Of a stretch of DNA of 64,000 nucleotides, positions 15,847-38,672 are shown in pieces. Under the pieces are notes generated by a model. It was not told the origin of the DNA, searched no databases, and saw nothing but the letters and a program-made list of their open reading frames with translations. The translations under genes and the position numbers were made by a program. How positions within the stretch are numbered: the first letter of the stretch is position 1; each line of letters starts with the position of its first letter. The DNA is from Microbacteriaceae bacterium (GTDB lineage: Bacteria; Actinomycetota; Actinomycetes; Actinomycetales; Microbacteriaceae), in the NCBI GenBank assembly GCA_044338315.1, contig JBIILU010000002.1:15987-79986 (forward strand), written 5' to 3'.

Positions 15847-16995
15847 GTGGCCGCAGTCAATATTGGAACTCCGCGAGTAGTTGAGACACTCGCCCCGCGT
15901 CGTAAGTCCCGCCAGATCAAGGTCGGCAAGGTTCTCGTCGGGGGTGACGCTCCCGTTTCCGTTCAGTCGATGACGACGACAAAGACAACGGACATCAACG
16001 GCACTCTGCAACAGATCGCCGAACTCACCGCGACCGGTTGTGACATTGTTCGTGTCGCCGTTCCGACACAGGACGATGCCGATGTGCTGCACATCATCGC
16101 GAAAAAGAGCCAGATTCCCGTCATCGCGGACATCCACTTCCAGCCCAAATACGTTTTCCAGGCAATCGACGCCGGGTGTGCCGCGGTTCGCGTGAACCCG
16201 GGCAACATCAAGCAGTTCGATGACAAGGTCGGCGAAATTGCAAAGGCCGCCAAGGCCGCCGGGGTTTCCATTCGCATCGGCGTCAACGCCGGTTCGCTTG
16301 ACCCTCGCCTGCTGCAAAAGTACGGTCGCCCGTCGCCCGAGGCGCTGGTCGAATCGGCAGTCTGGGAGGCGGGCCTCTTCGAGGAACACGACTTTCACGA
16401 CTTCAAGATCTCGGTGAAGCACAACGACCCGGTCGTCATGGTCAAGGCGTACCGTCAGCTCGCCGAACGCGGTGACTGGCCGCTGCACCTCGGGGTAACC
16501 GAAGCCGGCCCGGCATTCCAGGGAACCATCAAGTCGGCAACGGCCTTTGGAATTCTGCTCGCCGAGGGAATCGGCGACACCATCCGTGTCTCGCTGTCCG
16601 CGCCGCCCGCCGAAGAAATCAAGGTCGGGCTCAAGATTCTCGAATCGCTCAACCTGCGCGAACGCAAGTTGGAAATCGTTTCGTGCCCATCGTGTGGTCG
16701 CGCTCAGGTCGACGTTTACACGCTGGCCGAAGACGTCACCAAGGGGCTCGAGGGCATGACCGTTCCGCTGCGCGTCGCTGTCATGGGCTGTGTCGTCAAC
16801 GGACCGGGCGAGGCCCGCGAAGCAGACCTCGGTGTCGCATCGGGTAACGGCAAGGGCCAGATTTTCGTCAAGGGCGAGGTCATCAAGACCGTCCCCGAAG
16901 CCGACATCGTCAAGACCCTCATCGAGGAAGCGAATCGTTTGGCCGCCTCGATGCCCGCCAGCACCACGGGCAGCCCCGAGGTCACCGTCTCCTAA
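15847..16995 (+). CDS. ispG: 4-hydroxy-3-methylbut-2-en-1-yl diphosphate synthase
   Basis: 382 aa, [11 protein letters not shown] and Fe-S Cys motif [10 protein letters not shown]. Confidence 0.95.
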
Positions 16996-24262: not shown

Positions 24263-26002
24263 GTGAAGAAGATTCTCGGTCTATTCGTCTTGCTTTTCGC
24301 TTTCTGGTCGCCCACAATCGCCAGCGCGTCCGTCGATGATTTCACCTTTGACCGCTTCGATGGCGTGTACGAGTTGTCGCGCGATGATCGGGGGCACTCC
24401 GTCCTTACGGTTCACGAAGTGCTCGTCGCGCGATTCCCGGATTTTGACCAGAATCGCGGCATCAAACGCGCAATCCCCGAGCGGTATCTCGACAGTCCGC
24501 TCGAAATCGAGATCGTCAGCGTGACCGACGAGTCGGGAGCAGATCGACCTTTCGAAACCGAGTCGGACGGCGCGTTCATGGTTGTGACGATTGCCGTCCC
24601 CGAAGGCGAGTTCGTTCGGGGCGTTCAGACGTATGAAATCACGTACGTTGCCCACAACGTCATCCTCGACGACACGGCGAATGGCGCGCAAGAGTTCTAT
24701 TGGGATATCAACGGCGACGGATGGTCACAACCCTTTGGCCGTGTGTCCGCCGAGGTGAGATTCGATGCCAGCATCGCCAGCGCATTCACCGGCCAAGTCT
24801 CCTGTTACGCAGGGGTGTCGGGTAATTCGACCTCGTGTTCCGAACTGAACTCGACGGCAACCGCCGTCACCGCCGCGCACGACAACCTGGGCGCGAACCA
24901 GACCCTGACGGTTGCGGCGCAATTCACAGCCGGCACCTTCACTCCTCGCGACAATTCCTACTGGGCGTCGGTGTTGTGGCCGTTCCATTCGGGCGCCGTT
25001 CTTGCCGTCACCGCCCTGCTGCTGATCAGCGTTACCCGTCGATTCACCGTTGCGCGCAGCGCCCCCGGCCGGCCGACGATCATCGCCGAGTACGGCCCAC
25101 CACCTGGGGTCTCGCTCTACACGGTCTCGGCCCTGTTGGCCAAGCCCCAGCGCGTCTTTGCGGCCGCCATCGTTGATTTGGCCGTTCGGGGAGTCATCGT
25201 CATCGAAGAATTCAACCCGCCCGGTTTCGGCAAGCGCGCCTGGGCGGTGCGGTTGATCACACTGCCGACGGCAGCGGACAAGGAATTCGTTTCGGCACTG
25301 CTCGGCGTCGATGCGGCGGTCGGTGCCCGCGCAACCGTGTCGGACCCGTCCAGGGGTGTGACGCAACGCGTCGTCGCTCTCGCGCGCCGTGCGGGAACCG
25401 CCCTCGTTTCCCTCGGCTTGAAGCGGACGCCACCCGGTCGCCGCCTGTTCGGCGCGCTGGCGATCCTCGTCACTATCGCCAACACCGTTGCCAGCGTCGG
25501 AATGCTGTCCGACTCGCGCGGCGGTTGGATTCCCGCCGTCACGCTGTTCACGGGGTTCATCGCCGGCATCGTGAGCCTGATGCTGTCGATGCACACTCCC
25601 CTCACGGCGGAGGGCGCCGAGGTGCGCGATCACGTGGCCGGCCTCGATCTGTACATCCGCGTCGCCGAAGCCGACCGGTTGCGCGTTCTGCAATCTCCCG
25701 ACGGCGCGCTCAAGAAACCGATCGACACATCGAACCCGCGAACGGTCATTCACCTTTACGAGTTGGTTTTGCCGTGGGCAATCCTATTGGGGCGCGAAAA
25801 GGACTGGGCGCGCGTGATGGAGATCGCGTACTCCGGCGATTCCCCGACGTGGTACGCCGGCTCTGTCCCCTTCACCGCTTCCAGCTTCAGTTCATCCCTG
25901 TCGTCGCTCACGTCGGCCGCATCCGCTTCCTCCGCCGGTGGTTCCGACGGAGGAGGCTCAGCGGGTGGCGGAGGTGGTGGCGGGGGCGGCGGTGGTGTCT
26001 AG
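24263..26002 (+). CDS. DUF2207-like membrane protein
   Basis: GTG 24263 gives the signal peptide VKKILGLFVLLFAFWSPTIASASV. A large ectodomain and several TMs follow, with a poly-Gly C-terminus (SAGGGGGGGGGGGV) as I recall for DUF2207. Confidence 0.72.
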   Translation: MKKILGLFVLLFAFWSPTIASASVDDFTFDRFDGVYELSRDDRGHSVLTVHEVLVARFPDFDQNRGIKRAIPERYLDSPLEIEIVSVTDESGADRPFETESDGAFMVVTIAVPEGEFVRGVQTYEITYVAHNVILDDTANGAQEFYWDINGDGWSQPFGRVSAEVRFDASIASAFTGQVSCYAGVSGNSTSCSELNSTATAVTAAHDNLGANQTLTVAAQFTAGTFTPRDNSYWASVLWPFHSGAVLAVTALLLISVTRRFTVARSAPGRPTIIAEYGPPPGVSLYTVSALLAKPQRVFAAAIVDLAVRGVIVIEEFNPPGFGKRAWAVRLITLPTAADKEFVSALLGVDAAVGARATVSDPSRGVTQRVVALARRAGTALVSLGLKRTPPGRRLFGALAILVTIANTVASVGMLSDSRGGWIPAVTLFTGFIAGIVSLMLSMHTPLTAEGAEVRDHVAGLDLYIRVAEADRLRVLQSPDGALKKPIDTSNPRTVIHLYELVLPWAILLGREKDWARVMEIAYSGDSPTWYAGSVPFTASSFSSSLSSLTSAASASSAGGSDGGGSAGGGGGGGGGGGV

Positions 26003-27126
26003 GCGCGCTGTGCGCGGCGGCGTGCGACGGTGATCGCCACACCCGTTCCGGCTAGTGCGAGTCCGGTCCACAGACCGAAGGCTGGGTCAACACCGGTGTC
26101 AGCCAAACCGAGAACCAGGCCGCCTTCTGGGCCCCACATTTCGTAGGTCATGCTGGCCTCAGTTACTTCGGCATCGTCGAGGTTAGTCAGCCATTCGCTC
26201 TCGCTGTATTCTTCGTAAAGGGTACCCACCATCGTGTACTGCCCAGGCTGCAGAGTCGCCGTGAACCAGGCAAACTGGTCGTCGAGCATGTAGCCGGTCG
26301 TCGTGTGGATGTTTGCATCGTTCTGGCCACGCAAATCTGCCGCGGTTCGGGCAATAGCCCAAAGGTCACCTGCTACGGCGCCTGCGTCGTCGGCGTCGTC
26401 ATTGCAACCGATGACACCCGAATCGATGTCTGTTGGGTCAAACTCGGAATACAGCGCGAGGAAATTATCGCCGACCGGCGAGAAGTCGCTGCCGATTCCA
26501 AAGTACATGTCTTCTTCGACCGGGTCGGTGTCGACTAAGCGGAAGGTGTACGTGCCAGCCTCGGTTATCGTGAGGTCAACGGTGGCGTAAGGGTGAGACC
26601 CAACTTCAACATCACACTGAACGATCCCGCCAATGAGGGCGTCCTCGTCGAGAATCGCTGCATCGTCAGGAGTAGTGAAGAATTCCGGGTCCGACGTGAG
26701 AGTGGCCGAAGTTGTTGCAAGCAGTTCACCGGCCGGATCAGCCGTCACAGTCGCGAGGTTGATGATGATGTCTTCGGTGATGCTGTTCGTGTCTTCAAAA
26801 TCCAACCAGGCAAATTCATCGACGACAATCGTTGCAGGGTCGGTGGTGATGGCCAACGGGGTCGCGGTGATTTCAGTTGCCCCCAGGGTCGCATTACCGG
26901 TGCCGTAGGAATCACTGATTTCCCATGCGGGATCATCACAATTGAGGAGCGTAATGGTGACGGATTCGCCGGGCGCGAGCGCGTGATCTTCTTCACCAGC
27001 GTTTCCCAGGTCGCAGTCGAACGTGAAAGCATTACGTGGGATTGCGGCAGATGCCGGGGCAACCGCGATGAGGGGGAGTGCCGAGACCGCGAGAAGTGCT
27101 AGGGCGGATTTGAGTGCTTTATGCAT
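25999..27126 (-). CDS. Acidic cell-wall-anchored surface protein (LADTG sorting signal)
   Basis: Signal peptide MHKALKSALALLAVSALPLIAVAPASA. The body is Asp/Glu/Thr-rich. The C-terminus has LADTG, a hydrophobic stretch and RRRAQRA. Confidence 0.75.
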   Translation of the reverse strand: MHKALKSALALLAVSALPLIAVAPASAAIPRNAFTFDCDLGNAGEEDHALAPGESVTITLLNCDDPAWEISDSYGTGNATLGATEITATPLAITTDPATIVVDEFAWLDFEDTNSITEDIIINLATVTADPAGELLATTSATLTSDPEFFTTPDDAAILDEDALIGGIVQCDVEVGSHPYATVDLTITEAGTYTFRLVDTDPVEEDMYFGIGSDFSPVGDNFLALYSEFDPTDIDSGVIGCNDDADDAGAVAGDLWAIARTAADLRGQNDANIHTTTGYMLDDQFAWFTATLQPGQYTMVGTLYEEYSESEWLTNLDDAEVTEASMTYEMWGPEGGLVLGLADTGVDPAFGLWTGLALAGTGVAITVARRRAQRA

Positions 27127-27295
27127 GTCTAAGGTTCCTTTTCGGAGGGGTGATGAGTTTAGTAAAGCCTACTAGTAAAAGTGCGGTAAACTGAAGCAAC
27201 GCCCGCCGCGAATAGCGCAGTGAGGGCACATCTCCACCGCAACGAATCGGCCTCTTGTCGAATCGAACGGGGTGGTTGATTAGTCAAGGAGAACC

Positions 27296-29404
27296 ATGGC
27301 CCAAACCGGCCGCAACAATTCGAACGCTCGGACGAAGCGTCGTCGACCTCTTGACGAGGAAGGCATCATCCCGATCTTGGCCCGTGCGGTGCGCGAGGTC
27401 GAGAACGCGGTGAACCGCGATGGCAAGGTTAACGCGACAAACCGGACAAAGTTTCACGCTGCTGGCCTGCTGATTCGTGAAGAGAAGCAGCGCATGTCCG
27501 AGGATCGGTCGATTCCGCAGAAGGATCGCGAAGACGTCAACAAGCGTTTGGACGGACTCGCCATGATCATGGTCAAGTGCCTGGCCAAGGATCAGTCGCT
27601 CGGCAGCCTGCTCGACGCGAATGCCCCGGTGTCGGCGGCGACCCAGAAGCTGCGCCGCGACATGTTGCTGGCCAGTGGCCAGGAATTGGACATTGACGAA
27701 ATCCTGATTGTCGACGAGTCGCCCGCCGAGGTTGCCGACAAGTCGAAGTCGGTGTTGCCGCCCAGTGTTCGGCGTGCCGAATTGGCGAACCCGTTTCTGA
27801 CTCCCGTGTTTGCGCCGGGTGCCCGCGTGACGGGCCGCCTTCAGAACTGGGAACTGATCGACCCGCTGTTCCGTGCCTTTGAACAGGGCGGTCAGGCGGC
27901 CAGCATGGATTTGCCCGAGGCCCGCAGCCTGCACACCCCCGGCGGCATGGATTTGATGCGCCACCAGGCGCGGTTCGTTGAATCGGCGAAGGCCGGACAC
28001 CGCTCGTACCTCCTGGCCGACGAGCCCGGTCTGGGCAAGACCGCCCAGGCGCTTCTTGCAGCCGAGGCAACCAAATCATTCCCGCTGCTCGTCGTCGTTC
28101 CCAACGTGGTCAAGCGCAACTGGGAGCGCGAGGTTGACCGCTGGATCCCTCACCGCATCTCGTCGGTGGTTCACGGCGACGGCGACGATCTCGACGCGTT
28201 TGCCGATGTCATCATCGTCAATTACGACATTCTCGAACGACACGCAGGATGGGCGAGTCGGTTCGGCTTTGCCGGCATGGTCGTCGACGAGGCACACTTC
28301 ATCAAAAACCGTGATTCGCAGCGGTCGCTGAACGTTCAAAAGATTGCCACCGCGATTCGCACGCGCCACGGAAACCCGTTGCTCATCGCGCTCACGGGAA
28401 CACCCCTTATCAACGAGGTCGAAGACTTCCGCATGATTTGGAAGTTCCTGGGCTGGATCGACGACGACAAGCCGACCACCGCTCTGATGGCGAAACTCGA
28501 GTCACTGGGGCTGTCGCCCGCCGACAGCGGGTTCTTCCCCGAAGCGCGCCAGTGTGTCATCGACATGGGAATCGTGCGCCGACGCAAGGCCGATGTCGCC
28601 AAAGACATCCCCGCACGTCGCGTCGCCGACATCCCCGTCGAGCTCGACGACGAATACGGACGGTCGATTCGCCAATCCGAGGCGCTGCTTATGCAACGAC
28701 TCGTCGAACGGTATGACCGCATCATCGCCGGGCGCGGCGATCGCGCCGCGGGAATTGACGAGGACATCGTGCGCCTTGTTGCGCACAGCGAGGTCGAGGA
28801 ATCAAAGTCGTCGGACACCGGCGACAACGTGTTCGCCATGGTTCGCCGAATTGGCCAGGCAAAGGCAACTCTCGCTGCCGACTACACCGCCCAGTTGGCG
28901 GCGAACGTCGGCAAGGTCGTGTTCTTCGCCAAGCACATCGACGTGATGGACACCGCCGAGGCGTTCTTCGCCAAGGCGGGAATCACGACGAGGTCGATCC
29001 GCGGGGATCAGTCGGCGACGGCACGAACCGCGGCCATCGACGACTTCACCAACGACCCCGACGTCAAGGTCATCGTCTGTTCACTGACCGCCGCGGGTGT
29101 GGGCATCAACCTGCAGGTCGCGTCCAACGTCGTGCTCGCCGAACTGTCGTGGACCAGCGCCGAACAGACCCAAGCAATTGACCGTGTTCACCGCATCGGT
29201 CAGGAACTACCCGTCACGGCGTGGAGAATTCTCGCGGCGCAAACAATCGATTCACGCATCGCTGACCTCATCGATTCCAAGGCCGGTATTGCCGCACGAG
29301 CACTGGACGGCAGCGACTCAGAAGTCGATCAGAGCGAAACGGTGCAGATGGCTGCGTTGATGGCGTTGTTGTCCGACGCGCTCAAAGCCCGCATCGACGC
29401 CTAG
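27296..29404 (+). CDS. SNF2-family helicase
   Basis: 702 aa with AAGGAGA upstream. Motifs LLADEPGLGKTAQAL (I), VVDEAHFIKN (II), LTGTPLINEVEDF (III) and GVGINLQ..QAIDRVHRIGQ (V/VI). A ~230-aa N-terminal extension has no recognisable motif. Confidence 0.88.
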   Translation: MAQTGRNNSNARTKRRRPLDEEGIIPILARAVREVENAVNRDGKVNATNRTKFHAAGLLIREEKQRMSEDRSIPQKDREDVNKRLDGLAMIMVKCLAKDQSLGSLLDANAPVSAATQKLRRDMLLASGQELDIDEILIVDESPAEVADKSKSVLPPSVRRAELANPFLTPVFAPGARVTGRLQNWELIDPLFRAFEQGGQAASMDLPEARSLHTPGGMDLMRHQARFVESAKAGHRSYLLADEPGLGKTAQALLAAEATKSFPLLVVVPNVVKRNWEREVDRWIPHRISSVVHGDGDDLDAFADVIIVNYDILERHAGWASRFGFAGMVVDEAHFIKNRDSQRSLNVQKIATAIRTRHGNPLLIALTGTPLINEVEDFRMIWKFLGWIDDDKPTTALMAKLESLGLSPADSGFFPEARQCVIDMGIVRRRKADVAKDIPARRVADIPVELDDEYGRSIRQSEALLMQRLVERYDRIIAGRGDRAAGIDEDIVRLVAHSEVEESKSSDTGDNVFAMVRRIGQAKATLAADYTAQLAANVGKVVFFAKHIDVMDTAEAFFAKAGITTRSIRGDQSATARTAAIDDFTNDPDVKVIVCSLTAAGVGINLQVASNVVLAELSWTSAEQTQAIDRVHRIGQELPVTAWRILAAQTIDSRIADLIDSKAGIAARALDGSDSEVDQSETVQMAALMALLSDALKARIDA

Positions 29405-30471: not shown

Positions 30472-30948
30472 GTGGGATACGTGTACGACGTGTGTGTGGT
30501 TTATTTGGTGCGAAGCCGCCAAACGCTGTTCGGCACCCGTACTGAGATCTTGCTCGGCGAAAAACTGACCGGCCTCGGCACTGGAAAGTTCGTCGGCGCC
30601 GGCGGCAAACTCGAATCGGGGGAGAGCGCGGTGGATGCAGCGGTTCGAGAAGTCGCTGAAGAGCTCGGGGTGCTAGTTGCCCCCGCCGACCTCGAACCCA
30701 TCAGCGTCATCACCTACCCGTTCGTCGATCGCGACGAGTGGAGTCAACGCAGCTTCGGATTCGTTGCCCGACAGTGGACGGGCACACCTCGAGCCAGCGA
30801 CGAACTCGCTCCGCGGTGGTTCGACACTCGTCGCATTCCGTTCCACCGAATGTGGGCCGATGCTGAGTTGTGGTTGCCGCGGGCCCTCAACGGTGAATTC
30901 ATTGAGGAGACTTTTTCGTTCCGCGCCGACGGCACACTCGTCGGTTAA
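30472..30948 (+). CDS. NUDIX hydrolase (MutT-like)
   Basis: Perfect Nudix box GKLESGESAVDAAVREVAEELGV (G-x5-E-x7-REUxEExGU). 158 aa. Confidence 0.85.
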   Translation: MGYVYDVCVVYLVRSRQTLFGTRTEILLGEKLTGLGTGKFVGAGGKLESGESAVDAAVREVAEELGVLVAPADLEPISVITYPFVDRDEWSQRSFGFVARQWTGTPRASDELAPRWFDTRRIPFHRMWADAELWLPRALNGEFIEETFSFRADGTLVG

Positions 30949-31100
30949 CGAGCGAAGGGCCGAGCTTTCGCCCGACCCTTCGCTGCAGAACTGACTAGTT
31001 CTTGGCTCGTGCGCGTCGCACAGCGGCCACTGCACCGAGTGCCACTCCACCGGCGAGCAGCGCGCCAGCGCCGATGCCGATCGCGGTTGCGTCGACACCA
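30943..31100 (-). repeat. Direct repeat copy 1: sorting-signal codons plus 3' hairpin cassette
   Basis: About 158 bp aligning by eye with 32326..32483, with most positions identical. It covers the last ~35 codons of surface protein B, its stop and the downstream hairpin. Confidence 0.85.
30951..30984 (-). terminator. 15-bp hairpin with GAAA loop downstream of surface protein B
   Basis: Minus-strand RNA AGCGAAGGGUCGGGC-GAAA-GCUCGGCCCUUCGCU, 10 nt after the stop. No clear U-tract. It also lies 3 nt after the convergent NUDIX stop. Confidence 0.55.
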
Positions 31101-32185
31101 GTGTTACCAAGGTCGGTTGCTAACGAGTTCACGGGTTCACCGAGCGGGTCGAGGAACGTGACTCCCGATTCGGGGTCGTAGTAGGTGTTCATGAAGACGA
31201 GACGAGCGTCTGTTGGATCGTCGACATCGTCAAGCATGAGCATGAGGATCAGGTAGTTCCCTGCTTCAGGGGCATCCGCTGGATTGTCAGACGCGGGTTC
31301 GATGATGAAGGGGAAGTCGCCATCGAGAGATACTCCATTCGGAAAAGTGACCTCAAACAAAGGCTCAACTGGGCCAAGAGCCGGAATTGCCTGGAACCAC
31401 AATTCCCTGAACGAATTGTTAGGTATCGAAGGATCGTCAGGGAACATAAACGCTCCACCGCTGCTTACATCTAAGGGTACGAAGTCACCGAACAACGAAT
31501 CACTACCCGCAGCAAATCGTGCATCGCCTGCAAAACCGTTACCAAACGTTTCCTGGTTGGAAATTTCAAACGGCTCCAGCAGGACGTGGTTGGGGATCAG
31601 TTCGACGGCTGCCTGGATAGTGATGTCGTCAATGAATCCGTCGGCAGTGGGTGTGGTGTCCTCCACATAGCTAGTAGTGAACGTCGCGTCACAAACGACA
31701 CCAACGAGGTGCGGCATGATCGATTCAAACACGTAGTCATCTAGCCAAGCATCGCCAAGGAGCATACGGAATGAGCCCTCGAACGAGTAGGTCGTGGCAG
31801 CGCCAGAACCGCTAGTGGCCCAGCCGTCACCGGTTGTGTCGAATTTGAGCAAACCCATCTCATTACTGTCACCACTTGGCGTAAATGCGGCAAAATAAGC
31901 CGAGCCTTCAGGAACAAGATCCATGCCGCTAAACACATTTGTGACTTCCTCAGTTGCGTCTTCGAGATAAAAACCAGGTGACAAAACCAATGACACATCT
32001 GAAGGGCCTGTGTAGTCGACTGTGTAGGTTGAGGCATCCTCTGAAACTGTTGCCGCAATAGTGAACGGGGAGCTATCGCACGAGCCAGCGCCACCGGCCT
32101 CGGCGACGATGAGTTCACCACAACCAGCGATGAGCGCAACCGGAAGGGTGATCCCTGCGACGGTCAGGAGTTTCTTTGAAAACAT
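30995..32185 (-). CDS. Acidic surface protein with N-terminal lipobox and C-terminal LGNTG sorting signal
   Basis: MFSKKLLTVAGITLPVALIAGC (lipobox LIAGC). The 396-aa body is Asp/Thr/Gly-rich. The C-terminus has LGNTG, hydrophobic AIGIGAGALLAGGVALGAVAAV and RRARAKN. Confidence 0.75.
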   Translation of the reverse strand: MFSKKLLTVAGITLPVALIAGCGELIVAEAGGAGSCDSSPFTIAATVSEDASTYTVDYTGPSDVSLVLSPGFYLEDATEEVTNVFSGMDLVPEGSAYFAAFTPSGDSNEMGLLKFDTTGDGWATSGSGAATTYSFEGSFRMLLGDAWLDDYVFESIMPHLVGVVCDATFTTSYVEDTTPTADGFIDDITIQAAVELIPNHVLLEPFEISNQETFGNGFAGDARFAAGSDSLFGDFVPLDVSSGGAFMFPDDPSIPNNSFRELWFQAIPALGPVEPLFEVTFPNGVSLDGDFPFIIEPASDNPADAPEAGNYLILMLMLDDVDDPTDARLVFMNTYYDPESGVTFLDPLGEPVNSLATDLGNTGVDATAIGIGAGALLAGGVALGAVAAVRRARAKN

Positions 32186-32325
32186 GTTTACCTCTCGAAG
32201 TTTGATTCGTCGACGCGAATCAGTTTCTGCTACTCTATCGAATTCATGTGAGCTGACTCAAGGCAACGCGCAGCACTTAATCAGTTGGCGCAACACTTCC
32301 GTACCGCCCCAACGGCACGATGGTT

Positions 32326-32483
32326 GGTTAAACGAGGAAGGGCCGAGCTTTCGCCCGACCCTTCCTCGTTAGAACTGACTAGTTCTTGGCTCGTGCGCGT
32401 CGCACAGCGGCAACTGCACCTAGTGCAACTCCACCGGCGAGCAGTGCACCAGCACCGACGCCGATCGCGGATGCGTCAACACC
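32326..32483 (-). repeat. Direct repeat copy 2: sorting-signal codons plus 3' hairpin cassette
   Basis: Aligns with 30943..31100. It covers the last ~35 codons of surface protein C, its stop and the downstream hairpin. Confidence 0.85.
32332..32369 (-). terminator. 17-bp hairpin with GAAA loop downstream of surface protein C
   Basis: Minus-strand RNA ACGAGGAAGGGUCGGGC-GAAA-GCUCGGCCCUUCCUCGU, 9 nt after the stop. The base of the stem differs from copy 1 but stays complementary. Confidence 0.55.
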
Positions 32484-33215
32484 GGTCGAGGCCAGGTTGC
32501 CGAGGCTCCAACGAATGATGACGGCACCGGACGCGCCGTCTTGGTAGGTCGTCCCGCAGACACTGCCACCTGCACCGTACGTGGGTGTTGGGCATTCACC
32601 TGCGGTGGCATAGATTCTGCCGCTGGGAGCATAAAGTGGCTCGCCGTCAGTCACGGGGAAGAGTGGATTGTTCGCACCAGCCACGTTGACATCACTCAGC
32701 GGAAAGCCAGCGTAAGCCATGATGTTGTCGTCAAATCCGGAACCTAATCCGTCGGCTGAGTCCTCTCCGAGCTCCGAAGCTTCGCCGTCTAATCCGTCGA
32801 TCACCGTATCGACGATTGAGTTTGTCCAGAGGAGTTCCTCGTAGGTCCCTCCTTCACCAACGGTGACGGCTAGCGCGCCCGTGACGTCCTCATAGGAATA
32901 GTGTTCCATGTAGGCTCCGTAGCCGAAGAACTTCCTTAAGGAGGTTGGGTCTTCTGTCACGGTCTCTTTTTCTGACCCAGCGCCACCACCGATGAGCACT
33001 GCTTCAAATGCGGTCACGCCCGCAGGTGCATCGAACGAGTAATCACCGGCAGTTCCGTAAATGACCTGACAAATGCTGCCGTTGATGAGGCTGACGGTTG
33101 CGCCTGTGTGCGTTCCGCAGTCTGCGGCCGTTGCGGCCTGTGCTGCGGTTGCGCCAAGCAGCGAGCCTGCACCCATCAGGGCAACGGATCCGGCTGCAAG
33201 AATTTTGTTCGTCAT
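32379..33215 (-). CDS. Wall-anchored glycine-rich-domain surface protein (LASTG sorting signal)
   Basis: Signal peptide MTNKILAAGSVALMGAGSLLGATAAQA. Contains YSFDAPAGVTAFEAVLIGGGAGS..VTVGEGG..GAGGSVCG..GAVIIRW. The C-terminus has LASTG, a hydrophobic stretch and RRARAKN. The ATG overlaps the upstream stop (ATGA). Confidence 0.78.
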   Translation of the reverse strand: MTNKILAAGSVALMGAGSLLGATAAQAATAADCGTHTGATVSLINGSICQVIYGTAGDYSFDAPAGVTAFEAVLIGGGAGSEKETVTEDPTSLRKFFGYGAYMEHYSYEDVTGALAVTVGEGGTYEELLWTNSIVDTVIDGLDGEASELGEDSADGLGSGFDDNIMAYAGFPLSDVNVAGANNPLFPVTDGEPLYAPSGRIYATAGECPTPTYGAGGSVCGTTYQDGASGAVIIRWSLGNLASTGVDASAIGVGAGALLAGGVALGAVAAVRRARAKN

Positions 33216-34669
33216 GATTTGCCTTTCGAGGGGGTGATGTTGTTGGAAATAATTGTTCGGTCTACTTTACCAAGTTGATTGCGCGGAATCTCCGCCATTC
33301 GAACGAGCGCACCGAAGGCCAGGTCGGGTAGGAATTCCTTGACGCGGGCGGCCAAAATCGCCGGTTCGGGCGGGTGCTTGGTGACAAATGCGATTCCGAC
33401 CGATGTTGCGCCGGTGGCGTTGGTGAATTGGAAACTTGCCGCGTCCAGAAACAAGCCCGATTCCACAAGCCACTGGTCCAGGTCCAGCAGGTTGAATTTT
33501 GCCCCACCCGCATTCACCAGGTCGTCGCGGCGCCCCGCCAACCACAATCGGTTCTGGTCATCGATTCGCCCGTAATCTCCGGGATAGAACCAGCCGTCTC
33601 GAAATCCGGAGAATCCGGTGGTGACGGGGTTTTTCCAATAACCGCTGGGCATGCCGTCTTTCCGGAAGCGCAGAATTCCTTCGGTGTGGGCGGGCAGGGC
33701 CGCGCCGTTCTCATCCACAATTTCCGCGTCGATTTCGTCCACAATCTCGCCCACCATGGACGGGCTGAGCGTGTCGACCGTCCCGCGCGTGACGGTGCCG
33801 ACTTCGGTGGATCCGTAAAGGTAGGTGGGGGTCACACCGAAGAACATCTGGCATTCGGTCACCGTCTTTGACGGGATGAGGCTGCCGGCCACTTCGACGA
33901 TTTCGAGTGCCGTTTGTGGTTTGCCCGCGCGCTCCGCTTCGACCAGCACATCCGCCAGTCGTGCGGGTGAGGTCTTGATCGCCGCCACGCGATTCTGTGA
34001 AATGAGGCTGAAGTTCTCAGCCGCCCCCGCCACGGCGAAGTAGGTTTCACCGTTCATCATCGCCCACATAAATGTTTGGTATCCGGTCACCGTGTCGAGC
34101 CCCAGAAGAGACATGAACGGGACGCGGGGAATCCAGTTGCGGTGGGCGGAGTCGACTCGCGCCGTCAAGTAGTCGCTGGTGAACGGCACCCCTTTGGGTG
34201 TGCCGGTTGTGCCGCTGGAGAAAACGACCCGCACGACATCGTCGCCACCGAGCTCCACAATTCCGGCCCGAGGCGCCGCCCCAGCCAACGACCGCACAAA
34301 ATCGAGCGACAGTTCGACGACGGGAAGGTCGCCCGCACCGCGCGCCATTCCATCCGTCAGGACCAGGTCAATCGAGTCGCGGTATCCGCGCAGAATTGTT
34401 TCGGAAACGCGCATCGACACGGCACCCAGTTGCAGCAGCGCGAGCATTGCCACAGCCTCCATCTCTGGCCGAGCATTCACGCCCACAACGGAACCTTGCC
34501 GCACACCGGATTGCTCCAGCTTGCTCGCCATGCGCCTGACCGTGTCGGCAATGTCCCCAAACTTCAGCGTGCCACCGACGCTGACGACCGCCGGTGAGTC
34601 GGGCGTGCGGTCGGCGCACTCAAAGAATTGGACGACGGGGTTCACGTCTCTATCCAACCGCAGTTGCAC
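33212..34669 (-). CDS. Stand-alone adenylate-forming enzyme (AMP-dependent synthetase/ligase)
   Basis: 485 aa with core motifs FSSGTTGTPKG, YGSTEVG, YPGDYGRID, GRRDDLVNAGGAKF and PRNQLGKVDR. The GTG follows the upstream TGA directly. Confidence 0.85.
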   Translation of the reverse strand: MQLRLDRDVNPVVQFFECADRTPDSPAVVSVGGTLKFGDIADTVRRMASKLEQSGVRQGSVVGVNARPEMEAVAMLALLQLGAVSMRVSETILRGYRDSIDLVLTDGMARGAGDLPVVELSLDFVRSLAGAAPRAGIVELGGDDVVRVVFSSGTTGTPKGVPFTSDYLTARVDSAHRNWIPRVPFMSLLGLDTVTGYQTFMWAMMNGETYFAVAGAAENFSLISQNRVAAIKTSPARLADVLVEAERAGKPQTALEIVEVAGSLIPSKTVTECQMFFGVTPTYLYGSTEVGTVTRGTVDTLSPSMVGEIVDEIDAEIVDENGAALPAHTEGILRFRKDGMPSGYWKNPVTTGFSGFRDGWFYPGDYGRIDDQNRLWLAGRRDDLVNAGGAKFNLLDLDQWLVESGLFLDAASFQFTNATGATSVGIAFVTKHPPEPAILAARVKEFLPDLAFGALVRMAEIPRNQLGKVDRTIISNNITPSKGKS

Positions 34670-35497
34670 TCACGGCAGATCCAGCGAACCGTTTTTCACC
34701 CGTTTCGGGTAATCCGTCGGGTACGCCTTCTGCTTGGGGCAGGTCGCCAGCACTTCCTTCATCGCCACCTTCTCGTCGGGGGTGACCCACAACTTGTAAG
34801 CGGCCTTCACCGAAACCTGGCGTGACACATACCAACACCACACCTTCCGGCGCGGGGGCAACCACCAATCGGCGCTGTCGTCACCCTTCGAACTGTTCGT
34901 CGGGCCGTCCACTGCGACCAGGTTGAGCGGGTCGTTCGCTAACGCAACCCGCAAATCGTAACTGATTTTCCGAGCCCCCGTCTTCCAGGCATTCGACAGG
35001 GCGACGATGTGGTCGATCTGCACCGCGTTCGACGTGCCCCTGCCGCGTTTGAACGAGATGGTCTCGCCCGTGTACGGGTCGTCGATGACCCCCGTGTACA
35101 CCAGACACCAATCCGCACGGGTGATGTCCTCAAAGTCGCGGCGCAAAATATCGTTGCGAGTGTCGCACCCGTTGCCGTCCACGTCATACCAACTCGGCCC
35201 GAAACCGCCTTCGCGGTCATACCCCGACTGCGGCCCCAACGCCTTCACCGGCAACGTGTTCAACAGCGCAAGGGCTGTTCCCGCCGGTGCCGTGACGTCC
35301 TCGGTCGGGGTGGGCGTCGGCGTGGGCGTTTCGGTCGCGGCGGGGGAAGGCTGGGCGCTGGCCGAGTACGTCGGCCGCGCATCCGGCGTCTGCTCGTTGT
35401 CCGGCGCGAACGCGCTGTTAATCGACCCGATCACCCACAACACGAAGATAACTCCAAGCCCAATGGGCGTGAGGGTGAACTTGCGAGCCATGCTCAC
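34670..35497 (-). CDS. Membrane-anchored/secreted DUF1524-type His-Me (HNH-like) nuclease
   Basis: N-terminal TM (LTPIGLGVIFVLWVIGSI) and a Pro/Thr linker (TETPTPTPTPTED). Contains GYDREGGFGPSWYDVDGNGCDTRNDIL, IDHIVALSNAWKTGA and DPLNLVAVDGPTNSSKGD. The start may be ATG 35491. Confidence 0.8.
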   Translation of the reverse strand: MSMARKFTLTPIGLGVIFVLWVIGSINSAFAPDNEQTPDARPTYSASAQPSPAATETPTPTPTPTEDVTAPAGTALALLNTLPVKALGPQSGYDREGGFGPSWYDVDGNGCDTRNDILRRDFEDITRADWCLVYTGVIDDPYTGETISFKRGRGTSNAVQIDHIVALSNAWKTGARKISYDLRVALANDPLNLVAVDGPTNSSKGDDSADWWLPPRRKVWCWYVSRQVSVKAAYKLWVTPDEKVAMKEVLATCPKQKAYPTDYPKRVKNGSLDLP

Positions 35498-35525
35498 AGC
35501 CTATGAGCGGCCTGCGACGTAGACG

Positions 35526-36413
35526 TTATGACGCCATAAACAATTCAAACCGTTGGGCCAGCTTGTCTCGGTCGGGTTTGTTGGCCTTCGATGTCGGTGT
35601 CGTGATTTCAGTCAGGTGCATGTCTTTGAGTCCGTGTTGAAGCATCGGCCCGTCGATTTCCTCGAGCAATGCTGCATCGATATGAACCGTGTAATCGGGA
35701 TCGATGCCCAGAAGGTTCCGGTCGTACGCGGCATGGTGAATCTTGCAAAGCGACAGACCGTTGGGGACAGAGGCCGATCCGCCCTCGTCCGCGTCGGGGA
35801 TGATGTGTGCCGCATCAAGCAGATCCGCGTGGTTGAGGCGACAGATTGCGCACCGACGGTCGTATGCGCTCAAAACCCTTGCGCGAAAGAGGGGCTGGTG
35901 GACACGGCGGCGAACTTCAACAGTTGCGTATCGCCTTTCAACCTCGGACATCCCCACTTCGACCTGTGCCTTGATCGTTGCGTCCACGGCGATTTCGACG
36001 TGCCCGGCTTCGAAGTCCGCTTTGAGGAGGAAAGCCCCAACGTATGGCACATAAAGGTTCGAGATGGGGCGTTCAAAAAGAATTATGGGAGTCCGGGTCT
36101 CCATCGCAACCAACATTTTTCTATTCGAGCCGGCTCGTGGATCTCCCGCCTCAAACTTGTAGCGCAGGATCCCGTTCTCGTCGAAGTGGTCGTCATAGGG
36201 GCCTTCGGCCGCACTGGTCACCGTGAGTGTCGCGTCAAACAACTGTGGGTTGATAATTCCGCGTTGACCAACCAGCGCAATTCGCTGACCATCAATCTCG
36301 AAATTCATGAGTTGGTTGTAGGTGAGTGCCCCACCGAACTCCGTCGCCATCTCGCGAACCTTGGCGAAAATTTTTTCGCGGAGCAGGTCTTGCTCCATCT
36401 GCGTAAGTGCCAT
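35526..36413 (-). CDS. HNH_2-type endonuclease with SRA/PUA-like N-terminal domain (type IV restriction-like)
   Basis: C-terminal CAICRLNHADLLDAAHIIP..NGLSLCKIHHAAYD (HNH). N-terminal GIINPQ..GPYDDHFDENGILRYKFEAGDPRAGSNRKMLVAMETRTPIILFE resembles SRA/YDG-type base-flipping readers; this domain assignment is inference. Confidence 0.78.
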   Translation of the reverse strand: MALTQMEQDLLREKIFAKVREMATEFGGALTYNQLMNFEIDGQRIALVGQRGIINPQLFDATLTVTSAAEGPYDDHFDENGILRYKFEAGDPRAGSNRKMLVAMETRTPIILFERPISNLYVPYVGAFLLKADFEAGHVEIAVDATIKAQVEVGMSEVERRYATVEVRRRVHQPLFRARVLSAYDRRCAICRLNHADLLDAAHIIPDADEGGSASVPNGLSLCKIHHAAYDRNLLGIDPDYTVHIDAALLEEIDGPMLQHGLKDMHLTEITTPTSKANKPDRDKLAQRFELFMAS

Positions 36414-37232: not shown

Positions 37233-38672
37233 GTGTCTGTCCTCGCCCGTAAAATTGGCTCAACAACGGGAGGCGGCGGCGACATGGTTTCGGTAACGGG
37301 CACGTTCAAGAGCGTCAGCGATGGCGTCGTCGGGTTCGTTCCCGATCGCAACGCGCCGTCGTCGGTTCCGCCAACCGTCATGTTGTCTGGTTTCCGTCAG
37401 TTCCCCGGGGTCGCACCCGAACTGGTTGCGCCACTGGGGGAAACAGTCACCGTCGATTACGACACCGCCGCAAAGCACATCATGTTCCCCGTCGATCGGT
37501 GGCTCGATGCTGACCTGCTTCATGCGTATCCGGAGGGCACGGTCACGCTGGCTCTGGTTCAGACCGTCACACGACAGAGCGCCACCGTGTTCATCCACCC
37601 GACGATGCCCATCGTCATGAACCGCGAAGATTTCTCGTCGAACGCGAAGGACGTCGTCGACCGCCTGCTGACCGACGGCGATGTCATCCCGGTGCGCATC
37701 GCGCACAACGCCAAAGGCGCTGTCAGGCTGCGCGCGCACGATATCAACGACGACGAAACGGTTCTGGCCGCCCCCGAGTTGTTCCCCGGCCGAGGGCCGT
37801 GGTTGGCCGCGATGTCGCTGACGACAGTCGACGAGATTCGCGAGCGCTACCTGGCCGAGAAACGCCAGCGCGACGAATTCAACGACGCGATGGAGAAACT
37901 CGCCGCGCAGCTGGACACCGACATTCACGAACTGCGCGAAGTGCTGGCCGGAATCGGCACGGGCACGGGCGAAATCCCGGTCGCTACGACCACCGCCCCC
38001 AAGAGCGAAAAAGAGAAGGTTGCCGACGCCGTTCGCGACATGGCGACCTCGCACATCACCAAGGTGCTGTTGGCCTACAAGAGCCAGATCACGACGCTGA
38101 TTACCCAGAACAAGGCGCTCGTCGCCGACGTCGAAGAGAAGACCGAGAACGACCGCACGCTACGCGCCGAACTGTCAACCGCCCGCCAGCGCATCCAGGA
38201 ACTCGACAAACAACTGGGCAGTGCACGCGGGTCCGATTCGATGCCCGACCGCCGACACCACTTCACGACCGCCACGGAATGGATCATCGAAGAGGTTCGC
38301 CGGTTCTGGCTCGACAACTACACCCCCGCCGACCGCGCGTCCTTCCCGCTCAACGTCGACCAGTGGCGCGTGCTGCCATCGTTTGCCACGACGTTCGAGG
38401 CCCTGACCGACGACGGCATGGACAAGGCAATCAAGACCGCGACCCACATCGTCACCGGACGCAACGCTGTCGAACACATTTTCGAAGACCACCCGCTTCG
38501 CGAAGGCGACGAAACGAGCAAACCCGAAGTCGTCCGCGACGACGGCGCCGCGTCGAGGCGCGCGTACATCGAATCGCACACCGCCCAGTCGCGCCGTCTG
38601 CACTATTGGCGCCTGCGCGACGGGTCGATCGAACTGTCACGGGTCGGTTTGCACGACGACTTCACGCCGTAA
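37233..38672 (+). CDS. Hypothetical 479-aa protein (OB-like N-terminus, coiled coil, RelE/ParE-like C-terminus?)
   Basis: Long ORF with coding-like composition. Two candidate starts each have an SD: GTG 37233 (GAGGGA) and ATG 37284 (GGGAGG). I recognise no confident family. See findings. Confidence 0.62.
   Translation: MSVLARKIGSTTGGGGDMVSVTGTFKSVSDGVVGFVPDRNAPSSVPPTVMLSGFRQFPGVAPELVAPLGETVTVDYDTAAKHIMFPVDRWLDADLLHAYPEGTVTLALVQTVTRQSATVFIHPTMPIVMNREDFSSNAKDVVDRLLTDGDVIPVRIAHNAKGAVRLRAHDINDDETVLAAPELFPGRGPWLAAMSLTTVDEIRERYLAEKRQRDEFNDAMEKLAAQLDTDIHELREVLAGIGTGTGEIPVATTTAPKSEKEKVADAVRDMATSHITKVLLAYKSQITTLITQNKALVADVEEKTENDRTLRAELSTARQRIQELDKQLGSARGSDSMPDRRHHFTTATEWIIEEVRRFWLDNYTPADRASFPLNVDQWRVLPSFATTFEALTDDGMDKAIKTATHIVTGRNAVEHIFEDHPLREGDETSKPEVVRDDGAASRRAYIESHTAQSRRLHYWRLRDGSIELSRVGLHDDFTP

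Follow-up and report, generated by a model that had tools for sequence, protein, structure and literature searches.

A predicted adenylate-forming ligase and a wall-anchored Gly_rich_2 protein apparently form a conserved gene pair in Microbacteriaceae

Why should the gene for a stand-alone adenylating enzyme overlap the gene for a protein of the cell wall, and which of the neighboring genes belong with them? The questions are raised by a locus of a Microbacteriaceae bacterium found in a stretch of 64,000 nucleotides (the window; positions 15,987 to 79,986 of contig JBIILU010000002.1, assembly GCA_044338315.1). Four closely packed minus-strand open reading frames (ORFs) in this locus code for an HNH endonuclease, a DUF1524 nuclease-like protein, a stand-alone ligase of the ANL (class I adenylate-forming) superfamily (33212..34669, minus strand) and a secreted glycine-rich protein with a LASTG anchor (Gly-rich protein; 32379..33215, minus strand). 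The original prediction, made from the letters of the window, took the four genes as one tightly coupled operon and considered a nuclease or defense role for it. Our analysis points to a smaller unit, composed of the ligase as its cytoplasmic member and the Gly-rich protein as its extracellular member, and on balance we favor the view that this is a two-gene module in which the ligase provides a decoration needed by the adjacent surface protein. In the public annotation the ligase is an 'acyl-CoA synthetase/AMP-(fatty) acid ligase' (CoA, coenzyme A) and the Gly-rich protein is a 'hypothetical protein'.

The genes that travel with the ligase were identified in a survey of 79 loci (numbered with the prefix L), collected by looking up the contigs that carry ligase homologues and then scanning one genome per species with the ligase alignment. 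The scan used two peptide patterns and is biased towards the ligase clade. Most of the loci were contigs of metagenome-assembled genomes, and ORFs were taken from stop to stop. All these ORFs were searched iteratively with a hidden Markov model of the Gly-rich protein, and a Gly-rich gene was considered adjacent when its stop-to-stop ORF overlapped that of the ligase or lay within 90 nucleotides of it. The ligase was present at a phmmer E value of at most 1e-44, equivalent to 28-93% identity, in 67 loci, 63 of which had enough flanking DNA to be judged, and a Gly_rich_2 gene was directly adjacent to it in 56 of these 63 informative loci. No adjacent Gly-rich gene accompanies the outgroup ANL ligases (L073-L085), which a rough neighbor-joining tree sets apart. 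The pair was found in about 20 or more distinct flanking contexts, as defined by shared flanking ORFs, and is kept down to a ligase identity of 28%. In the closer relatives the partner gene is downstream and on the same strand, with a spacing of -8 to +35 nucleotides in six gene-called relatives, and the two genes overlap or abut in most of the co-directional loci. Distant relatives, among them the cultured Antiquaquibacter soli, Protaetiibacter mangrovi and Schumannella soli, have the partner in convergent or divergent orientation, and Pfam confirms the partners in L041-L069 as proteins with Gly_rich_2, Flg_new and LAxTG features. Since the pair is kept in the convergent orientation, shared transcription cannot explain the pairing.

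The two genes also share their history. The whole unit is duplicated in tandem in four loci (L003, L012, L013 and L014), where both members fall into matching orthologous groups and have diverged together, and the distance matrices of the ligases and the Gly-rich proteins correlate with r=0.76, while the maximum obtained by permutation was 0.10. In L005, L009 and L011 one ligase gene precedes two to three tandem Gly-rich genes. The ligase-to-Gly-rich junction is the only constant adjacency. By these comparisons of neighborhoods and alignments, chance falls far short of explaining the association of the ligase with the Gly-rich protein, and the survey shows a self-contained two-gene module that has been inherited, duplicated and moved as a pair across the Microbacteriaceae and some Acidimicrobiia. 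A literature search yielded neither a description of the ligase/Gly_rich_2 pairing nor a pathway that links such a ligase to a sortase substrate, the latter in agreement with the original prediction; the pair apparently is conserved and undescribed in Microbacteriaceae.

A hidden third partner was looked for by clustering the ORFs of at least 70 amino acids located within 3 kb of the pair in 59 loci. This candidate was rejected: no family occurred in more than three contexts, and those three were related. A carrier protein, a condensation domain or an acyltransferase had been reported missing from the window, and no such partner accompanies the pair there or in any related locus. A prepilin peptidase gene (Peptidase_A24) lies between the tandem pairs in L003 (7469-7933, minus strand), L004 and L012-L014, all of which belong to one context group. 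The C-terminus of the partner is not constant. An OmpA-like peptidoglycan-binding domain in L027 and L053 and an fn3 domain in L070 replace the sortase signal, and the Gly_rich_2 domain is kept. As the anchor varies and the Gly_rich_2 domain does not, the link is to this domain and not to sortase anchoring. For the same reason, and because other LAxTG proteins have no paired ligase, the idea that the ligase supplies the acceptor of the sortase reaction was rejected.

The Gly-rich protein of the window has 278 amino acids, 16% of them glycine, and an N-terminus that resembles a signal peptide. It ends in LASTG-VDASAIGVGAGALLAGGVALGAVAAV-RRARAKN, that is, a motif, a hydrophobic segment and a basic tail, which are the sequence features of a sortase substrate of the class E LAxTG variant; most members of the ligase-associated Gly-rich family carry an LAxTG sorting signal. 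No credible sortase signature was detected in the 64-kb window, where the sole TLxTC match is in an ORF with no other sortase-like feature. These features support the earlier description of a glycine-rich, LASTG-anchored surface protein; however, the protein's own sequence scores below the threshold of the Pfam family PF21722 (Gly_rich_2), with 9.4 bits against 24.3 and E=1.3. Its homologues in L001, L003 and L005 pass the threshold with 37-53 bits, the window protein is 35-40% identical over its full length to the proteins of L001, L009 and L010, and the family profile retrieves it at 1.7e-76. Its membership in Gly_rich_2 is indicated by this full-length homology to proteins that pass the threshold, together with the matching predicted fold. 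Several glycines conserved in the family are substituted in the window allele (A101, E104, A196 and S198), and its allele group may be a derived subclass of the domain.

The AlphaFold2 (AF2) model of the Gly-rich protein (pLDDT 83) had two fold matches at E <= 0.001, the fiber of cyanophage Pam3 (7ypx, 2.5e-5) and a tail-tip chain of phage Bxb1 (7.4e-4). Two further Bxb1 chains matched at 2-3e-3, and the TM-scores were about 0.4. Judged by this model, the domain resembles phage tail fibers, and distant Gly_rich_2 proteins are found in phage tail modules that have no ligase. The L001 Gly-rich protein had no match in 50,697 phage records searched with tblastn. Outside the Pfam domain, 58 of the 75 ligase-associated Gly-rich ORFs that were scanned have an N-terminal C-G...C-[QE]-L-x-F hairpin, the two Cys of which probably form a disulfide. 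The Cys of the 'CG' pair is not part of a lipobox because the preceding residue is often D or N. This residue was also considered as an acyl acceptor, a role that is not supported, since the paired second Cys suggests a disulfide hairpin. The residues conserved in the family are glycines, Tyr99, Asp110, Arg235 and the N-terminal Cys pair. A Gly_rich_2 protein of Parcubacteria (P0168) carries the N-terminus of a type IV pilin.

The other member of the pair matches the Pfam family AMP-binding (PF00501) with 124.5 bits, well over the gathering threshold of 29.9 (6.1e-36), which places it in the ANL superfamily. In an alignment of 28 homologues the core motifs SSGTTGxPK, YGSTE, PGD and GRxDD and the A10 lysine are invariant (columns S151-K159, G286-E289, G364-D365, G379-R380 and K468). 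The enzyme therefore looks catalytically intact, as expected from its earlier description as a complete adenylate-forming enzyme with all core motifs. Among the best 25 of the 95 NCBIfam families matched, the ligase did not reach any cutoff. The best match was PRK06187 (128 bits, cutoff 476), menE followed the same trend (93 bits, cutoff 330), and the ligase did not qualify for any of the named acyl-CoA ligase equivalogs (FadD types, MenE, cyclohexanecarboxylate-CoA ligase, malonyl-CoA synthase and others). The fold search with the AF2 model (pLDDT 87) found generic ANL neighbors and no discriminating match: MenE, MatB, benzoate-CoA ligase, DltA and stand-alone adenylation (A) domains fit equally well, with 18-21% identity.

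Some features nonetheless inform on the type of substrate. The best single-sequence match in the PDB was FadD5 of M. tuberculosis (4.9e-23, about 24% identity), and the GW-F-x-PGD and GYW motifs of the ligase align to FadD5-type acyl-CoA synthetases and resemble those of acyl/aryl-CoA synthetases. The A4 position, occupied by His in acyl/aryl-CoA synthetases and by Asp in amino-acid activators, is an invariant Thr (T193) in the ligase. This residue aligns with the Asp of the FD-I-S motif of LgrA (the position of D235 in GrsA), and the score against the nonribosomal peptide synthetase (NRPS) adenylation model TIGR01733 was 94.7 bits for a cutoff of 317.4, so that the protein does not classify as an NRPS-type amino-acid adenylation enzyme. 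A glycine-activating enzyme was considered since LgrA, the second A domain of which activates glycine, ranked first in the PDB profile search with 184.9 bits. This candidate was rejected: the rank is an artifact because the score sums two A domains, the best of which gives 110 bits by itself, compared with 153 for FadD5, and the Thr located where amino-acid activators have Asp also disfavors it. A phage origin of the ligase was rejected as well, as the tblastn search of the 50,697 phage records returned generic ANL matches with no more than 24% identity. Taken as the alignments present it, the ligase is a compact, complete and deep-branching ANL enzyme without a specific family assignment; it appears acyl-CoA-synthetase-like rather than of the amino-acid type and would adenylate a carboxylic acid.

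The resemblance to FadD5 brings up an explanation in which no decoration takes place. The fiber-like protein could bind an organic or fatty acid from outside the cell, or a polymer from which such an acid is released, and the ligase would trap the acid, once imported, by converting it into a CoA thioester, in the style of the vectorial acylation represented by fadD5 with the mce1 operon or FadL with FadD. In addition to the acyl-CoA-synthetase-like motifs and the best single-sequence match, this scheme has the advantage of needing neither carrier nor transferase, which fits a two-gene module, and the carriers are freshwater Microbacteriaceae with small genomes, in which uptake modules are presumably at a premium. 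However, no transporter is linked to the pair, the ligase matches no catabolic equivalog, and in its fold the Gly_rich_2 domain corresponds to a phage receptor-binding fiber and not to a known lipid or acid binder. Moreover, an identity of 36% between strains that are otherwise 95% identical is typical of surface antigens and not of nutrient binders. We consider capture and activation of an acid unlikely.

Returning to a decoration, for which we have a mild preference, the acyl group activated by the ligase could have two destinations. In the first version it would end on the Gly_rich_2 pre-protein itself before export by Sec; in the second, it would end on a wall polymer that is then bound by the fiber-like domain. 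In either version each ligase would supply the decoration that its neighboring surface protein, Sec-exported and wall-attached, requires, and the arrangement would be that of a cytoplasmic enzyme devoted to an envelope protein. Direct modification of the pre-protein is slightly favored because it needs no other dedicated gene and because the unit is duplicated as a whole and its genes overlap or abut in most co-directional loci, but we propose it tentatively; decoration of the wall polymer we regard as doubtful. A more specific proposal, in which the ligase loads the acyl group onto the pre-protein without carrier or transferase, in what would be a novel type of ATP-dependent modification of a protein by an ANL enzyme, and the product is exported and anchored to the wall as a strain-variable surface determinant, for example for masking or mimicry of phage receptors, is speculative and rather improbable as it stands.

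Several observations weigh against the decoration model. We know of no ANL enzyme that acylates a non-carrier protein directly. No Lys, Ser or Thr that could be the acceptor is conserved in the alignment of the Gly_rich_2 family, and the conserved nucleophiles of the partner are limited to the Cys pair and Tyr99, which speaks against direct modification in particular. The wall-polymer route requires transferases or flippases, and the clustering for third partners linked none to the pair. The adjacent Gly-rich gene is absent from seven of the 63 informative loci (L034, L040, L042, L046, L059, L064 and L065), and the sampling of secreted Gly_rich_2 genes that lack a ligase was confined to the same lineage and phages. 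Finally, L007 (2953-5279) combines a ligase 92% identical to that of the window with a Gly-rich protein that is 35% identical to that of the window and 79% identical to the L001 allele. On these identities there is a recombination breakpoint at the ligase/Gly-rich junction of L007, and since the alleles are mixed, any recognition between the two proteins would not be allele-specific.

The pair was compared with known systems in which similar components take part. The Dlt pathway (DltA, DltC, DltB and DltD) has, as we suppose for the pair, a cytoplasmic ANL enzyme dedicated to decoration of the Gram-positive envelope, and DltA (3lgx) is among the structural neighbors of the ligase model. Unlike the Dlt pathway, the pair has no linked carrier protein, MBOAT protein or DltD, its partner is a protein with a phage-fiber fold, and the Asp position that binds the amino group in amino-acid activators is the invariant T193. 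The exosortase A-associated acyl-CoA ligase of PEP-CTERM systems (TIGR03098) is also an ANL ligase genomically tied to proteins with a C-terminal sorting signal. The ligase of the window is not a member because it scores 78.8 bits against a cutoff of 592.35. TIGR03098 systems are multi-gene exopolysaccharide loci of Gram-negative bacteria that include an acyl carrier protein and a decarboxylase, and the link described here is to the Gly_rich_2 domain instead of the sorting signal. Compact acyl/aryl-CoA ligases such as MenE, MatB, benzoate-CoA ligase and FadD5 share the ANL fold, a size of about 480 amino acids and all core motifs; they differ in sequence (18-24% identity, no equivalog cutoff reached), in the replacement of the A4 His by Thr and in the neighborhood, which for the window ligase is neither menaquinone-related nor catabolic.

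On the side of the surface protein, the phage Gly_rich_2 proteins (the Pam3 fiber 7ypx and the Bxb1 tail tip 9d93) are the sole significant fold matches of the model. In contrast to them, the window protein is encoded by the cell and combines a Sec signal peptide with a Cys-x(n)-Cys hairpin at the N-terminus and an anchor to the wall. No ligase accompanies the phage versions, whose TM-scores to the window model are only about 0.4. Serine-rich-repeat LPXTG adhesins are modified before export by cytoplasmic glycosyltransferases encoded next to the adhesin, and they use a dedicated SecA2/Y2 system. These glycoproteins and their accessory Sec system are a conceptual analogue only: the pair would make do with one ANL ligase and a signal peptide of the ordinary kind, and the modification is our proposal. 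The module belongs to none of these systems beyond the superfamily.

If the link is functional, it would represent an uncharacterized way for Gram-positive actinobacteria to build or decorate a surface protein, in which one family of wall-attached, phage-fiber-like proteins has an ATP-dependent adenylating enzyme of its own. It would also place the Gly_rich_2 domain and a large clade of orphan ANL 'acyl-CoA synthetases' in a concrete and testable context. Freshwater Microbacteriaceae carry the module in abundance, and a single locus can have as many as two pairs or three Gly-rich genes. Among cultured strains it is present in Pseudolysinimonas kribbensis JCM 16015, where the pair is co-directional, and in Protaetiibacter mangrovi, Schumannella soli and Antiquaquibacter soli, where it is convergent, so that its function can be addressed directly.

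What, then, is the relation of the pair to the two nuclease genes? The HNH_2 endonuclease gene (35526..36413, minus strand; Pfam HNH_2, 6.5e-11) and the gene for the membrane-anchored or secreted DUF1524/GmrSD_C nuclease-like protein (34670..35497, minus strand; Pfam GmrSD_C, 1.1e-16) complete the set of four minus-strand ORFs, all of which were found exactly as predicted. The 28-nucleotide gap between the HNH and DUF1524 genes and the ATGA overlap that joins the stop of the ligase gene to the start of the Gly-rich gene were confirmed in the sequence. The TGA of the DUF1524 gene directly abuts a GTG (34669) in the raw sequence, as had been noticed, but the public gene calls start the ligase at the GTG at 34645 (477 amino acids), which leaves 24 nucleotides after the DUF1524 stop. 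Directly 3' of the Gly-rich gene is a stem-loop (32330..32371, minus strand), the hairpin said to close the unit, which folds with -36.5 kcal/mol (z -7.4; none of 200 shuffled sequences folds as well) and is a likely terminator. Consensus scans for promoters and terminators gave counts that were not above those of shuffled-sequence controls.

This layout is the basis for the view that the HNH enzyme, the secreted DUF1524 nuclease, the ligase and the surface protein form one surface-exposed nuclease/defense operon. The tight spacing on one strand with no hairpin before the end of the fourth gene, the same gene order in L001 and L008 and the accumulation of defense-type genes (full-length GmrSD and Fic) at this site in relatives are in its favor, and co-transcription of the DUF1524 and ligase genes is plausible in the window strain. 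The distribution of the genes tells otherwise. For the two nucleases the outcome is the one named in advance as refuting the original prediction, namely homologues that do not lie together in other genomes. Outside the genus, none of the ligase/Gly-rich loci contains the nucleases: GmrSD_C homologues were found exclusively in syntenic loci of the same genus, and HNH homologues in some of those, whereas the ligase/surface-protein pair recurs in 56 of the 63 informative loci. Within the genus, inserted genes part the DUF1524 gene from the ligase gene. These are a Fic gene in L009, a full-length GmrSD gene, a surface-protein gene and a Fic gene in L010, and a surface-protein gene in L055, L091 and L092; L089 has a full-length GmrSD gene and no separate DUF1524 gene within the fetched flank, and in both L089 and L007 a surface-protein gene is directly upstream of the ligase. 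As the ligase/Gly-rich junction alone is invariant, the TGA/GTG abutment is a strain-level juxtaposition. In addition, the nucleases are 87-98% identical between strains, like the backbone, while the pair is replaced (68% and 36%), and in PADLOC the HNH protein had only a generic HNH match and the DUF1524 protein, the ligase and the Gly-rich protein had none. The four-gene operon did not hold up as a functional unit, nor did its nuclease or defense role, and we regard this explanation as very improbable. Judged by conservation and synteny, the two nuclease genes are conserved backbone genes of the genus that merely abut the module in this strain.

The two nucleases themselves were described in part correctly. 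The HNH protein, 97.6% identical to its counterpart in L001 and 90% to that in L008, had been called SRA-like. While HNH_2 was confirmed, the N-terminal 150 amino acids have no Pfam match even at E<=10 and no sequence match to any PDB chain, and the match to the NCBIfam family PT-DNA_restrict is partial (residues 141-283, 71 bits against 180). With no recognizable SRA or sulfur-binding domain N-terminal to HNH_2, the protein does not classify as an SRA-HNH or sulfur-binding-domain (SBD)-HNH endonuclease. The DUF1524 protein agrees with its description, having an N-terminal hydrophobic, transmembrane-type segment and a Pro/Thr-rich linker followed by GmrSD_C at residues 113-248, and is 65-87% identical in loci of the same genus. 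It has GmrSD_C without DUF262 (GmrSD_N), and so does not classify as a GmrSD type IV restriction enzyme.

The last question is why a pair conserved over such distances is so variable between close strains. When the window was compared with L001, the identities were 97.6% for the HNH protein, 95% for an SNF2 helicase, 87% for the DUF1524 protein, 68% for the ligase and 36% for the Gly-rich protein; the pair is therefore a replaceable cassette within a conserved backbone. The order of cassettes differs among sister strains, and full-length GmrSD (DUF262 plus DUF1524, about 600 amino acids) and Fic (HPFxxGNGR) genes (L010:1705-3537, L010:4872-5987, L009:4873-5988 and L089:1-1316) are located between the DUF1524 and ligase genes in sister strains, which makes the site an integration hotspot for defense and accessory genes. 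In this genus the module sits in a hypervariable island of surface-protein and defense genes, bounded by a NUDIX gene on one side and by the conserved gene of the secreted DUF1524 protein on the other. The replacement of cassettes from strain to strain probably reflects pressure by phages or grazers on the cell surface. As it lies in a strain-variable island, the module is a candidate for determining how susceptible abundant uncultured lineages are to phages or grazers.

A direct repeat of about 190 nucleotides (32297-32486 and 30914-31102, 81-91% identity) brackets a gene for a 396-amino-acid surface protein (30995..32185, minus strand), a mobile resident of the island that does not belong to the conserved pair. 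The repeat contains the 3' end of the coding sequence of a sorting signal, the hairpin (the stem-loop at 32330..32371 is part of one arm) and a remnant of the 3' end of a NUDIX gene, and by its composition looks like a trace left when cassettes were inserted or shuffled through homologous recombination. A near-identical second hairpin (-35.2 kcal/mol) is found about 1.4 kb further on, at about 30.95 kb. The recombinogenic nature of the island, the repeat of sorting signal and hairpin that flanks a cassette, the L007 breakpoint between the two genes and the seven ligase-clade members without partner are what would be expected if there were no direct functional link, that is, if the ligase were a metabolic enzyme whose gene has at its 3' side a preferred landing site for surface-protein cassettes and the two were co-inherited by linkage. 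Nevertheless, the adjacency is kept over about 20 or more contexts, 28% ligase identity, flips of orientation and duplication of the whole unit, and the partner is always a Gly_rich_2 protein, while other LAxTG proteins of the same genomes (such as the 396-amino-acid protein or that encoded at 27168-26002) are not consistently paired. Mere linkage is, in our opinion, quite improbable, and a functional pair is the preferred reading.

The 396-amino-acid protein was left out of the predicted unit of four, although its gene (32185-30995), the fifth in the row, has a sorting signal and hairpin near-identical to those of the Gly-rich gene. The protein has a lipobox-like LIAGC near its N-terminus and a C-terminal LGNTG followed by a transmembrane segment and RRARAKN, so that both ends may serve as anchors; it has no Pfam match. 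Its gene is absent from this position in L001 and L093 and is upstream of the ligase gene in L007, L055, L089 and L091. In sister strains a homologue of the protein can lie on one or the other side of the ligase. A third protein of the LAxTG type, with LADTG, is encoded at 26002-27168 (minus strand); it has no Pfam family and no paired ligase, and its gene adjoins that of the SNF2-family helicase (27296-29404, plus strand; 702 amino acids). The helicase resembles DrmD, DpdE and ZorD in PADLOC and, given its conservation of 95% between strains, is probably a housekeeping RapA/HepA-like enzyme. On the other side of the locus, between genes for a mycoredoxin and an aspartase/fumarase-like protein, a gene at 37233-38672 (plus strand) codes for a 479-amino-acid protein with no family assignment that is 91% identical in L001.

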